From assembly GCF_003790525.1 (NCBI RefSeq), contig NZ_CP033636.1: a stretch of 64,000 nucleotides of DNA. One strand, 5' to 3'. Below the pieces are notes generated by a model. That model saw only the letters and a list, made by a program, of their open reading frames with translations, had not been told where the DNA came from and did no database searches. This DNA comes from Escherichia coli. Its GTDB lineage: Bacteria > Pseudomonadota > Gammaproteobacteria > Enterobacterales > Enterobacteriaceae. The translations under genes and the position numbers were made by a program. Of this stretch, positions 1 through 6,761 are shown piece after piece; the stretch's first letter is position 1, and every line of letters starts with the position of its first letter.

Positions 1-685
1 AGTGAGCAATCTGCGTTCTTGCCACGGGGAGCCCGTACTGGCCGAGAAGTACCGAGCAGAGCCATTCATTTTCAACCGACGAGCTCATGTCGGCTTTCAT
101 GTTCCCCACAAGTCCGAGCGGTAGCTTGAATATATGCGTCGTTGGTGTATTACCCTCCGGCATACACCACCGATCTTCATGCCACAGTAGGGCTGTTTTC
201 TCCTGAGCACCGGCAATAGATAAACGTAAGTCGTCGTTATCTTCTGGCCTGCCCGGTAGCAATGTCTCCGTGGTATTACGCAAAGTTGCCGCAATTTCTG
301 ATTCAGTAAGCGGGTGATACTTCACGGAATATAAATCAGTGGGTTCATCTCCGTCATGAAGCAGCTGTATCGCGCCCACGCAGTCTTTTCCCAGCTCCGT
401 CAGCAGATCAAAAGGCTCCAGGCTATCGGCCTTGTAACGCATTGCCAGACGTCTGCGTATGCCTTCGCTGTCCGGCAGTAAATTATCAAAATAGTCACGT
501 ACCACATTTCCACGCCAGACCTGGTTCCCGGGAGTAAAAGGAAGGGACAATGACAGCGGCCTTCCCTGTTCGTCAGCAACCCATTCAGGAAGGTATTCTA
601 AGCTGTCTACCCCTTTGCTTTTTTCCCAGTACCCGACTTTGATGCCGTTCATCCAAATTACCAGACGTTGCTGTTTCCGGCTCAT
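1..685 (-). CDS. hipA: HipA-like Ser/Thr kinase toxin, N-terminal part (gene continues past window start)
   Basis: Open minus-strand frame from ATG (complement of 683-685) to the window edge; translation MSRKQQRLVIWMNG...SIAGAQEKTALLW...THIFKLP resembles the HipA N-domain; starts 4 nt after the hipB stop. Confidence 0.7.
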   Translation of the reverse strand, partial: MSRKQQRLVIWMNGIKVGYWEKSKGVDSLEYLPEWVADEQGRPLSLSLPFTPGNQVWRGNVVRDYFDNLLPDSEGIRRRLAMRYKADSLEPFDLLTELGKDCVGAIQLLHDGDEPTDLYSVKYHPLTESEIAATLRNTTETLLPGRPEDNDDLRLSIAGAQEKTALLWHEDRWCMPEGNTPTTHIFKLPLGLVGNMKADMSSSVENEWLCSVLLGQYGLPVARTQIAH

Positions 686-689
686 ATCG

Positions 690-986
690 TTACCAATCCT
701 CCTGTCGTGCAGGTGAGTTTGATTTAAGCATTTCTTCCGTCTGCTTCCTCTCTGAAGAGGTGGTTGCCGAGGAGAAGCTGATTTTTACGCCCAGGATGGA
801 AAACACCTTGAATAGCCGTTCAATGCTCGCACTGGCAGGGTTGGCTTCCAGACGTGAGTATGTCTGTTGAGTGACGCCTAACCTTTCGGACAGGTCTTTT
901 TGCGTCAGGCCATTCGCCTTGCGAAAACCAATGAGCAAGGGACGCAGCTGGTTGAGCGTGTTTAACGGGTAATCATTATTGATCAT
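690..986 (-). CDS. hipB: HipB-like HTH (XRE family) antitoxin/transcriptional regulator
   Basis: 98-aa ORF with helix-turn-helix segment GLTQKDLSERLGVTQQTYSRLE; immediately upstream of hipA in the same orientation. Confidence 0.7.
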   Translation of the reverse strand: MINNDYPLNTLNQLRPLLIGFRKANGLTQKDLSERLGVTQQTYSRLEANPASASIERLFKVFSILGVKISFSSATTSSERKQTEEMLKSNSPARQEDW

Positions 987-1040
987 AAGCTGGCCTCAGT
1001 AGTTTCCTCTGATACACCTTGCAGGCTGTTTCCTAAACAT

Positions 1041-1114
1041 ACACCCTAAAAGCTGTAATATCAAATTAACAGCCTAAAAGCTGTTAAATAGGGCGTACAA
1101 CTTTTAGGCTGTTA
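1041..1114. promoter_or_regulatory. Three copies of an inverted-repeat operator ACAGCCTAAAAGCTGT upstream of hipB (putative autoregulation site)
   Basis: Read directly: acaccctaaaagctgt (1041-1056), aacagcctaaaagctgtt (1068-1085) and its reverse-orientation copy acaacttttaggctgtt (1098-1114), 55-130 bp upstream of the hipB start. Confidence 0.55.
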
Positions 1115-3307: not shown

Positions 3308-3647
3308 CTAAGCTGCCAGCAACAGACGTGCTGACATAATCGTCACTTAACTGTAATGTCAGATACTTCAGGTACAAATGTCCGGACTCGTTTGAAACCT
3401 ATCCAAAACTGTAAATATATTTTCGTTATAATATAACCTTAATTGAATTGCTTTCTAACAGTTCCCACTCTTCTTTTCTAAGTACATTTTTAATTATTGT
3501 TCCATTGGCAAGCGTCAGCTCATACTCCCTGTCACTATAAATAAGGTTTTTATTTTCGACTCGTCGAAAGCTGGTAATGGCAACCTTTCTTTATCCACCT
3601 AACGAATAATTATCTTTGATTTCTGCGAACATTTAAACTCCCGTATA

Positions 3648-3780
3648 TTAACGTCTTAAAGACAACTGAACCTTCTCGGCCCTTTCTGCGCCCCGACTAA
3701 TGATACTATCGTAGTTGTCGATTTCATCATCAGTTGGTGATTCTTCAGCTATCCATTTCAGGTACTTGATGCGGTCCATA
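3648..3780 (-). CDS. possible small protein (43 aa), not in ORF track
   Basis: Minus-strand ATG at 3778-3780 preceded by strong SD CAGGGAGGAGCAT; translation MDRIKYLKWIAEESPTDDEIDNYDSIISRGAERAEKVQLSLRR; below the track length cutoff. Confidence 0.3.
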
Positions 3781-3869
3781 TGCTCCTCCCTGTACGATTT
3801 CCAGTGAACAAAGGCTCTACAGTATTAAGCTGCTGTAGAGCTCCTTTAACCATGCGAAAACTGTGCGTA

Positions 3870-5111
3870 TTACAGGATGCCTAACCTTTTTGTTTCATCG
3901 ATCCACGGTCTGAATTCTTCCAGTAAATTATCATATAACTTTTCATCGCTGATCGAACCGAAATCATCCATGGCAAAGAAGTGGGTGTTATCAACCCGGC
4001 GGTCAGTAAAGTCATCCAGATTTTTGAGGATACCGTAGCTTGAACCACCCAGGCCGACAAACTTCCAGAAGATGGGGTAGTTGGCAGAACGCCGGATTGC
4101 ATCTTTAATCGCCCGGGTCTTGCTGATCCCGCCATCGGTAATAAATACAACATATACCGGGATTTTCGAGTCCTTAAAGTAGTCGACAATTTCTTCCATC
4201 ACAGGGGGCTCATTGTTTGTCCCACCAAGTCCCGGCAGGTTCTCCCAGGCTGAACGCTTTCCAGACCCGCGAATGGACTGAATATATGTGTCCAGGTTGT
4301 CCAGTGTGACGTTTGGATACTTCTTGTGCTTCTCTCCAAATCCCCAGACATCCATTTCACCGTCGTCGTCGAACTGGGCGGCAAGAACGGCGATGCGGTC
4401 CAGCACAGACTGAACGTTGCCCTTACTGAACTGGCCACTCATTGAGCCGGATGCGTCAAGTACAAATGCAACCGCTGCCTCAAGGGTGTCCAGTTTATTT
4501 TTAGTGAGACTGACCGAGGCTTTTTTAGCGAGGCTTACGAGGCGCGGAGATCTGGTTTCAAGTTTCTTTTCCAGACTGATACGAGCAGGCTTTGCTGGCT
4601 GCGGAGCTGGCTGTGCGACATCAACGCCAAAGCTAATGGCCAGAGGCTCAAGACCACCGTTGAAACCCTGCCCGAGCGCACGAAGCTTCCAGGCGCCATT
4701 GTGCCGATATACTTCACCCAGGATGATTGCTTTCTCACTGCGGCCCTGAGTCTCAGCCTGAAAATCAGCGATACCAGGAGCCTGAATGCTCAATAAACTG
4801 AGCCCACTGATAGTATCTTCACCATCAATGACAACGGTGATCGCAATCTTACTGACGTTCGCCGGAACACGATCCAGTGCTATCTCAATGCTGGACTGCT
4901 GAGAACCGGTAACGAGCTTTACTGCCCCTTCAGGAGAAGACAGATTATTATAAAAGATAAAGTCAGAATCGCCGGTTACCTTTCCCTGAGCATTAAGCAG
5001 GAAGAGGCAGGTATCGGGTTCGCCTTTAAAGCCGGATTTGGCAGGGTACTGAAGATTCAGCCTGATCGCAGATTGCTGAAGCGGTATGTTTTGTCCGGAT
5101 TGTAGATTCAC
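3870..5111 (-). CDS. terF: TerF-like tellurite resistance protein (N-terminal TerD domain fused to C-terminal vWA domain)
   Basis: 413 aa; N-terminal TerD-type sequence ([10 protein letters not shown]...[19 protein letters not shown]), C-terminal vWA MIDAS motif (VLDASGSM...FITDG); AGGAG SD before the ATG. Confidence 0.8.
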
Positions 5112-5206
5112 ATTAACTCTCCTGATTTTTGATTATTTTTAAAGCGCAGCGCTTATATATGTTCCCCAGGCTTAGTTCAGGACGCTGGATTTCTGGTGAG
5201 GCGTAT

Positions 5207-5225
5207 ATATGGTGTGACACCATAT
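5207..5225. promoter_or_regulatory. 19-bp perfect palindrome ATATGGTGTGACACCATAT upstream of terF (candidate operator)
   Basis: Read directly; about 95 bp upstream of the terF start, in the terE-terF intergenic region. Confidence 0.4.
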
Positions 5226-5497
5226 TTCATCACGCTGAAGTTTCTATACCTGTTGAACTGGAATTTTGATTGACCGGGTATCTTATGTTCCAGATCCCGT
5301 TCCTTCATAAACCGCAAAAGTAACATATATCAGAGGGGCATTCTGTTGATAAAAGGCACGGAATACCGGCTTTAACCAGCAACCAGAGATAAATCCGTTT
5401 CCTGCCTTTAAAAGGCTCAGGTCTGAATTAACATGACCTGCTTTCTGAAATTTCCAGTCCCCTTTCTACTACTCCCTCCTGAAAGCGGATCGCAACC

Positions 5498-5522
5498 AAA
5501 AAAAACCCCGGCATTGCCGGGG
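5498..5522 (-). terminator. Rho-independent terminator after terE
   Basis: On the minus strand: CCCCGGC-AAT-GCCGGGG hairpin followed by a T8 run, about 20 nt past the terE stop. Confidence 0.65.
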
Positions 5523-5539
5523 TATGATTCAGCGTTGTT

Positions 5540-6115
5540 TTAGATGTTAACGCCGTGCTGGGAGGCAAGAGCCGCCAGGCCACCGGCAAAGCCCTGACCG
5601 ACAGCTTTAAACTTCCACTCAGCGCCATGACGATACAGTTCACCGAAGACCATAGCGGTTTCGGTTGAGGCATCTTCAGACAGATCGAAACGGGCAATTT
5701 CCGTGCCGTTGTCGTTGTTGTAAACGCGTATGAAGCTGTTGCTCACCATGCCGAAGTTTTGTTTACGCGCTTCTGCATCATAGATGGTAACGGCAAACAC
5801 CAGTTTTTTGATATCTGCTGAGACTTTGGTCAGATCGATTTTGACCTGCTCATCGTCACCGTCGCCTTCACCGGTACGGTTGTCGCCCTGGTGCTCTACC
5901 GCGCCATCAGGGCTGGTTTTGTTATTGAAGAAAATGAAATGCGCATCTGACAGCACTTTACCGTCTTCGCCTACTGCGAACACGGAAGCGTCCAGGTCAA
6001 AAGCCTGACCGTCAGTTACACGGGCATCCCAGCCGAGGCCAACCATAGCGATATTCATGGTTGGTGCTTCTTTGGTCAGAGATACGTTGCCGCCTTTTAC
6101 GAGAGAAACTGCCAT
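5540..6115 (-). CDS. terE: TerE tellurite resistance protein (TerD domain)
   Basis: 191 aa from the internal ATG at 6115 (AGGAG SD); [13 protein letters not shown]... shows the TerD-family pattern; the longer track ORF (to 6319) is an in-frame upstream extension. Confidence 0.85.
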
Positions 6116-6167
6116 TTTTAGCTCCTGCAAACAGTTGAATGAGGGCTGCATTAACAGCCCCGGGTGA

Positions 6168-6178
6168 AAAGTTACTTT
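6168..6178. repeat. AAAGTWACTTT palindrome copy 1 (intergenic terD-terE)
   Basis: Exact match gAAAAGTTACTTTTc read from sequence. Confidence 0.9.
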
Positions 6179-6182
6179 TCGA

Positions 6183-6761
6183 TCAGGACGCGTTAATGCC
6201 GTACTGAGCACATACAGATGCCAGACCACCAGCATAACCCTGGCCCACTGCGCGGAATTTCCACTCACCATTGTGGCGATACAGCTCGCCGAACAGCATG
6301 GCAGTCTCAGTGGACGCATCTTCGGTCAGATCGTAGCGAGCGACTTCAGTCTGGTTATCGTCATTGACCAGGCGAATAAACGCACCGGATACCTGACCAA
6401 AGCTCTGGCGACGAGCCTGAGCATCATGGATAGTGACAACGAAGATGATCTTGTCAACATCAGACGGGACGGCGTCCAGTTTAATTTTCAGCGATTCATC
6501 ATCACCATCACCTTCACCGGTACGGTTATCACCGGTATGGGTTACGGAACCGTCAGATGACGTCAGGTTGTTATAGAAGATGAAATCTGAATCGCCGCGC
6601 ACTTTGCCGTTTGAGGCCAGCAGGAACGCTGAAGCATCCAGGTCAAAGTCCTGACCGTCTGTTGAACGCGCATCCCAGCCAAGGCCCACCAGGACGTTTT
6701 TCATTGACGGAGCTGCTTTACTCAGGGAGACGTTCCCGCCTTTGGAAAGAGAAACACTCAT
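6183..6761 (-). CDS. terD: TerD tellurite resistance protein
   Basis: 192 aa; [15 protein letters not shown]...[10 protein letters not shown]...[19 protein letters not shown]; AAGAGG SD. Confidence 0.9.

Follow-up and report, generated by a model that had tools for sequence, protein, structure and literature searches.

In Escherichia coli K-12, HipB binds its operators cooperatively and bends the DNA by 70° (PMC3920265; PMC3376134), its unstructured tail is a Lon degron, and its W88 is conserved (PMC3376134). Mutating Gly22, Pro86 or Asp88 of the partner protein HipA disturbs dimerisation and raises persistence (PMC7758455). Upstream of K-12 hipB lie four TATCC-N8-GGATA sites spaced 28, 39, and 28 bp, with TTGACT abutting O2 and TATAAT placed between O2 and O1; a simple promoter scan of the K-12 hipBA region returned no match. 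In Shewanella oneidensis MR-1, HipB uses four GTGTA-N6-TACAC operators separated by 34 bp, one of them inside hipB itself (PMC4150777; PDB 4pu3/4pu4). Among plasmid-borne systems, hipBA of pPSKoxy4_2 was shown experimentally to stabilise its plasmid, the native promoter supplying enough HipB (PMC11487325). IncHI2 plasmids rank among the main carriers of mcr-1, mcr-9, blaCTX-M, and oqxAB, and hipBA lies in their conserved maintenance backbone, where hipAB has been listed by annotation only (PMC6617520).

Here we characterise the IncHI2 module and its upstream region in a 64,000-nt stretch of E. coli contig NZ_CP033636.1 (assembly GCF_003790525.1), hereafter the window. The original prediction, made from the letters of this DNA, had proposed a hipBA-like module with a triple ACAGC-N6-GCTGT operator, and hence a HipB whose DNA specificity differs from that of E. 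coli. It named TATCC-N8-GGATA correctly as the E. coli operator, as the four K-12 sites confirm.

A hipBA module on the IncHI2 backbone

Bases 1–1300 of the window are 100% identical to many IncHI2 plasmids, e.g. pSA186_MCR1, and 1186 plasmid records match this segment at 95–100% identity. The hipBA module sits on this IncHI2 backbone with both genes on the minus strand:

1–685, minus strand: hipA toxin gene, 5′ part only, starting at 685 and continuing past the window start
690–986, minus strand: hipB antitoxin/repressor gene, encoding 98 aa when read from the ATG at 986
994–997, minus strand: Shine-Dalgarno-like GAGG, separated from the hipB ATG by 7 nt, read from the sequence

In the identical plasmid pSA186_MCR1, HipA has 441 aa (the full gene occupies positions 3360–4685 of our locus L001). 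The order of the genes, hipB followed by hipA on the same strand with a 4-nt gap, is that of a HipBA module of the type II toxin–antitoxin kind, and the two genes probably form one operon. The RefSeq annotation places the start of hipB at 983 (an ATC codon, giving 97 aa), as against the ATG at 986–984 that follows the GAGG and gives 98 aa.

HipA matched the Pfam families PF13657 (Couple_hipA; 75.9 bits against a cut-off of 22.5) and PF07804 (HipA_C; 174.3 bits against 30.5), and scored 93.5 bits with TIGR03071. BLASTP gave 41% identity with K-12 HipA over 425 residues, and among PDB entries the plasmid protein matches E. coli HipA best (E about 1e-100). The autophosphorylated Ser150 and the catalytic Asp309 and Asp332 of K-12 HipA are all kept in the plasmid protein according to the BLASTP alignment, along which residue numbers were counted by hand, and the plasmid segments RLSIAGAQEK, ATDGHAKNFS, and NYDVLSA align with the K-12 kinase motifs. 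The dimer-interface residues Gly22, Pro86, and Asp88 are likewise kept.

HipB matched Pfam HTH_3 (E = 4.5e-15), and its best PDB sequence matches are E. coli HipB. The AlphaFold model consists of four helices with a core pLDDT of 85–92; its best Foldseek matches are again E. coli HipB chains (TM 0.85, rmsd 1.6 Å). Residues 75–92 are modelled with low confidence (pLDDT <50), while the C-terminal Trp (W98) is invariant in the subfamily alignment, a combination that parallels the tail and W88 of the K-12 protein. The antitoxin is thus predicted to be a Cro/Xre helix-turn-helix (HTH) protein that adopts the HipB fold, has a disordered tail at its C-terminus, and ends in Trp. With both proteins being true homologues by Pfam, PDB, BLASTP, and fold, the proposal of a hipBA-like module was upheld.

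Some 470 bp (1113–1586) between the operator array described below and a minus-strand hypothetical gene (1587–1979) appear to be non-coding, with only spurious-looking open reading frames and no Rfam match, and upstream of about position 1140 the sequence differs between IncHI2 lineages (compare locus L012). Further away, a minus-strand gene for a VWA-domain protein (3870–5111) lies in a region unrelated to the hipBA finding; we take the open reading frame at 5540–6319 to be TerD/TerZ-like from its translation, and the region 3870–6319 to be, presumably, the tellurite-resistance region of IncHI2 plasmids.

Four phased palindromes and the predicted promoter

A scan for ACANC-N6-GCTGT found four sites immediately upstream of hipB and none elsewhere in the 64 kb. 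All four fall within 99 bp and overlap the elements of a predicted promoter:

1014–1029: operator O1 (proximal), ACAGCCTGCAAGGTGT in the hipB orientation, over the predicted transcription start and early leader
1036–1041, minus strand: predicted -10 hexamer TATGTT, which shares the last base of O2
1041–1056: operator O2, ACAGCTTTTAGGGTGT in the hipB orientation, occupying the -35/-10 spacer
1059–1064, minus strand: predicted -35 hexamer TTGATA, with a 17-nt spacer to the -10
1069–1084: operator O3, whose sequence ACAGCTTTTAGGCTGT is a perfect palindrome, 4 bp upstream of the -35
1097–1112: operator O4 (distal), ACAGCCTAAAAGTTGT in the hipB orientation, one phase beyond O3

The repeats of the original prediction are therefore real, but their number was not three: the hipB-proximal site at 1014–1029 had been missed, and two of the sites start one base earlier than had been implied. 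The proposed spacing of about 27 bp upstream of hipB stood, with measured start-to-start distances of 27, 28, and 28 bp. Only the site at 1069–1084 is a perfect ACAGC/GCTGT palindrome; each of the other three has one mismatch in one half-site, their plus-strand half-sites reading ACACC, ACACC, and ACAAC.

This clustering is local. A looser scan (at least 8 of 10 core bases) gave 25 isolated matches in the rest of the window, or 0.39 per kb, which is the chance level, and at the same threshold no other pair of sites spaced 26–29 bp was found in the 64 kb. Neither a second hipB copy nor a second operator cluster was found elsewhere in the window. The K-12-type motif TATCC-N8-GGATA had no match between 987 and 1770 with up to two mismatches allowed, and its window-wide counts were at the chance level. 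HipB itself scores 41.5 bits against the NCBIfam HipB equivalog NF007271, below the cut-off of 79 bits. By operator and by equivalog score alike, the plasmid HipB falls outside the E. coli K-12-type class.

Short repeats present in two copies are often due to chance, and a terminator-like stem-loop was called at 1066–1087, so that base composition, a recent tandem duplication of 28 bp, or a hairpin in the hipB leader RNA might account for the repeats, with no protein binding at all. Shuffling leaves little room for chance: 0.37 matches to ACANC-N6-GCTGT are expected per 64 kb, and the observed count was reached in 0 of 100 shuffles. The segments between the sites are unrelated to each other, which argues against a recent tandem duplication. 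As for a hairpin, the stem-loop call was rejected, being the O3 palindrome itself; an Rfam scan of the whole window gave no match; half-sites are conserved across distant taxa while the spacers vary; and O3 and O4, lying upstream of the predicted promoter, would not be transcribed. We regard this explanation, in all its forms, as effectively refuted.

The predicted promoter is sigma70-like, lies on the hipB strand, and is interleaved with the array, so that O2 fills the spacer, O1 sits just downstream, and O3 and O4 lie upstream. It rests on a 9/12 hexamer match, of which about one is expected by chance in the region, and the transcription start is likewise a prediction. The positions of both hexamers are nevertheless retained between species: the -10 is conserved as TAtTGT across Enterobacterales loci, and TTG is conserved at the -35 position in the alignment. 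Four conserved palindromes, as candidate operators for HipB or HipBA, overlap the predicted promoter.

Distribution of the motif across the HipB subfamily

We scanned a set of genomes, one per species, with the HipB alignment, which yielded 80 loci from Enterobacterales, Burkholderiales, and a few other groups. The original prediction was open to refutation by the absence of the repeats from homologous loci; they turned out to be present: in 74 of the 80 loci, the 220 bp upstream of hipB hold one site or more (the remaining six had no site at the threshold used). Site density was 10.5 per kb in the upstream DNA (202 sites in 19.2 kb) versus 0.58 per kb in the flanks of the same loci (164 sites in 281.6 kb). 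Of 78 distances between adjacent sites in Enterobacterales, 77 were 27 or 28 bp, and in Betaproteobacteria the spacing was 27 bp or a multiple of it (54, 81, 108) where an intermediate site fell below threshold. hipA lies immediately downstream in 72 of 89 related loci.

Positions that played no part in site selection were also informative, with T at spacer position 2 in 93% and A at spacer position 5 in 88% of sites, as were the flanks T-1 and A17, giving an extended near-palindrome T-ACAGC-yTaTAg-GsTGT-A. Many loci have a degenerate right half-site (GGTGT, TCTGT, TTTGT). As the sites were selected on their core positions, the conservation of these is in part circular; the spacing, the positions in spacer and flanks, and the blind alignment do not share this problem. 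That alignment (MAFFT, 26 Enterobacterales upstream regions) showed conservation of the four sites, with O1 forming a conserved block, and of the -35 and -10 positions, but of little else, and nothing upstream of O4 aligned: similarity between species stops just upstream of that site.

Plasmids encoding HipBs 40–96% identical to the one studied here carry the same motif. A Klebsiella pneumoniae IncFIB/HI1B plasmid (HipB 72% identical) has four sites spaced 28, 28, and 28 bp in otherwise diverged DNA, and a Ralstonia megaplasmid (HipB 40% identical) has four ACAGC-N6/7-TTGT sites. Together, motif and HipB subfamily occur on IncHI2, IncHI1B/FIB, IncHI1A, IncFIA, and IncU plasmids, on the Ralstonia megaplasmid, and on the chromosomes of dozens of genera. 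Most substitutions between IncHI2 lineages (L012 and L013) lie in the N6 spacers; L013 has two half-site changes as well. By sequence comparison, the repeats are thus a property of the HipB subfamily rather than of the IncHI2 backbone, and their tracking of the subfamily is what is predicted for a cognate operator.

IncHI2 backbones encode many regulators, and phased repeats superficially resemble centromere-like or iteron arrays. The palindromes could in principle be bound by some other plasmid or host factor, such as a partition (centromere-binding) protein, a global plasmid regulator, or a nucleoid protein, with HipB regulating hipBA elsewhere or not at all. Yet the loci that share the motif differ entirely in their neighbouring genes and in the DNA outside the array, HipB is the sole DNA-binding protein common to all of them, the 64 kb hold no other cluster, and the layout mirrors the proven HipB array of E. 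coli. Since HipB is the only factor shared by all these genomic contexts, another binder is very unlikely.

Several loci differ from the standard arrangement. Orphan hipB genes that keep their sites with no hipA were seen at L005–L009, L018, L026, L030, L036, L038, L039, L042, and L043, and further at L045, L060, L083, and L091; at L013, L014, L016, L046, and L047, hipB with its sites is accompanied by a hipA remnant only. Several IncHI2 and IncHI1B plasmids have two HipB-like places each. In a number of Burkholderiales loci (L057, L066 at 1720–1800, L073, and others), the proximal operator runs right up to the hipB ATG and has a Shine-Dalgarno-like GGAG/GAGG in its N6 spacer, and TATAAT lies inside the next operator upstream; these operators hence overlap both transcription and translation signals.

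Such placements bear on a further possibility, namely that HipB does bind the array, but that the array serves chiefly as a DNA scaffold on which HipA is sequestered in inactive HipA–HipB complexes, promoter control being secondary. The strict 27–28 bp phasing and the kept interface residues of the HipA N-domain point to a constraint of protein–protein geometry, and dimerisation of E. coli HipA on adjacent operators occludes the active sites (PMC7758455). However, a pure scaffold would not need O2 and O1 to fall exactly on the promoter core, as they do in Enterobacterales, nor the betaproteobacterial sites to fall on the -10 and on the Shine-Dalgarno/ATG. Orphan hipB genes lacking hipA moreover retain the sites, which argues for a function independent of HipA. 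We consider it improbable that scaffolding is the chief role; scaffolding and repression are not mutually exclusive, and the former is possible as an additional role.

Taken together, it is highly probable that bases 1014–1112 constitute the autoregulatory HipB/HipBA operator array of the IncHI2 hipBA operon. The best reading of the hipBA promoter is that of an ordinary self-repressing antitoxin promoter whose recognition sequence would be unlike the textbook one of E. coli. The original claim of a HipB with a different DNA specificity is supported, at the level of sequence, by the motif's tracking of the subfamily, by its overlap with the predicted promoter, and by a changed recognition helix.

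Recognition, regulation, and relation to known systems

Over the HTH, plasmid HipB is 32% identical to K-12 HipB (57 residues), and its recognition helix reads TQQTYSRLE (T-Q-Q-T-Y-(A/S)-R-L-E in the clade) versus KQATISNFE in K-12. The differences from K-12 HipB are at positions where specificity is expected to be set. In an alignment with the N-terminal domain of the 434 repressor, the clade helix pairs with TQQSIEQLE; PDB entry 1per is a separate, weak match to HipB. In the 434 repressor, Gln28 and Gln29 read the outer ACA of ACAA-N6-TTGT. By analogy, it is plausible that Gln40 and Gln41 of HipB read the outer ACA/TGT, and that the functional difference from K-12 HipB lies in Gln41, Tyr43, and Arg45. 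The outer triplets are 13 bp apart in the plasmid sites versus 11 bp in the 434 operators, so the docking geometry must differ from that of 434. The 13-bp distance would need the DNA bending known for HipB, with which the A/T-rich centre is consistent.

A scheme of regulation can be proposed by analogy with E. coli. One HipB dimer would bind each palindrome through its Cro/Xre helix-turn-helix, with Gln40–Gln41 at the start of the recognition helix probably contacting the outer triplets and the A/T-rich centre of each site favouring bending. Occupancy of O2, in the spacer, and of O1, at the start site, may block RNA polymerase, and O3 and O4 would add cooperativity. HipA would act as co-repressor, HipA2HipB2 units on operators 28 bp apart touching through the HipA N-domains, and the same contacts may keep the kinase inactive, as they do in E. 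coli. Upon plasmid loss, or upon degradation of HipB via its disordered C-terminal tail, presumably through Lon-dependent turnover, the promoter would open and HipA would be freed, and the released kinase could then cause post-segregational growth arrest.

Because the operator code is common to the whole clade, orphan hipB genes on chromosomes or co-resident plasmids could act on IncHI2 hipBA, and they might cross-regulate it or serve as anti-addiction modules against it. A more far-reaching version of these ideas, which we put forward as speculation and judge rather doubtful, is that the uniform 27–28 bp array lets HipA2HipB2 units polymerise into one continuous nucleoprotein assembly, unlike on the two operator pairs of E. 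coli, and that orphan hipB genes, as anti-addiction or cross-regulatory modules, blunt the post-segregational killing of IncHI2 plasmids.

Compared with E. coli K-12 hipBA, the IncHI2 module has the same hipB–hipA order, the same HipB fold, and a predicted set of four palindromic operators over the promoter, with neighbouring operators 27–28 bp apart, as are O1–O2 and O3–O4 in K-12. The half-site, in contrast, is ACAGC rather than TATCC; the inner spacer is 6 bp and the whole site 16 bp, versus 8 and 18 bp in K-12; the spacing is a uniform 27/28/28 bp, versus 28/39/28 bp; and the genes are plasmid-borne and 4 nt apart, whereas the K-12 genes overlap by 1. No ACAGC-type array was found in the K-12 promoter. 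Judged by their sequences, the two modules appear to share an architecture while their operators are mutually exclusive, from which we predict that IncHI2 hipBA is insulated from chromosomal E. coli hipBA. Conversely, we predict cross-talk with the many related HipBs of the same operator code. The operator T-ACAGC-N6-GCTGT-A, in its four copies, offers a handle on the regulation of the module.

The Shewanella oneidensis system resembles the plasmid module in having a non-E. coli operator with an N6 spacer, in four copies, and a related HipB fold, but differs in half-site sequence and orientation and in operator separation; among PDB entries, plasmid HipA is closer to E. coli HipA (1e-100) than to Shewanella HipA (E = 3e-21). 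In the literature searched, which covered subscription journals incompletely, we found no description of ACAGC-N6-GCTGT in connection with HipB. The documented Shewanella operators reduce the novelty implied by a plasmid operator of this kind.

A second plasmid system is offered by the hipBA locus of a Klebsiella michiganensis IncA plasmid (L093). Its HipB is identical to K-12 HipB at 32 of 83 residues (38.55%), the figure published for pPSKoxy4_2 HipB (PMC11487325), so that this locus is apparently that module. Upstream of its hipB (L093:546–645) are four TAACC-N8-GGTTA palindromes spaced 27, 27, and 27 bp, which go unmentioned in PMC11487325 and form an operator class close to, but distinct from, the TATCC class of E. 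coli. Relative to the IncHI2 module, the IncA HipB has the helix KQTTVSDFE and is 38% identical over 48 residues, and its HipA is 44.6% identical.

An EMSA study of HipB has been published for Acidovorax citrulli, where the gene is 507 bp (168 aa) and the EMSA probe was the whole 396-bp promoter, with no motif defined (PMC11990009). We rejected this assay as direct support for the clade, given that longer HipB with its different N-terminus and the lack of a motif. The HipB of the Paracidovorax locus in our set (L066) is short, at about 90 aa.

Phage 434 repressor and Cro share with the plasmid protein a Cro/Xre HTH, a helix beginning T-Q-Q, and half-sites beginning ACA, but 434 is not a toxin–antitoxin antitoxin, and its operator is 14 bp as compared with 16 bp in the IncHI2 array; we infer that the relationship is an analogy of recognition code.

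For the study of specificity within the HipB family, four operator classes and four recognition helices are now available for comparison. The general understanding of how HipBA systems work is unchanged. Each HipB family seems to have an operator code of its own, within a shared plan of about four operators phased at roughly 27–28 bp, and, divergent HipB operators being already known, the IncHI2 module would add one more operator class among them.
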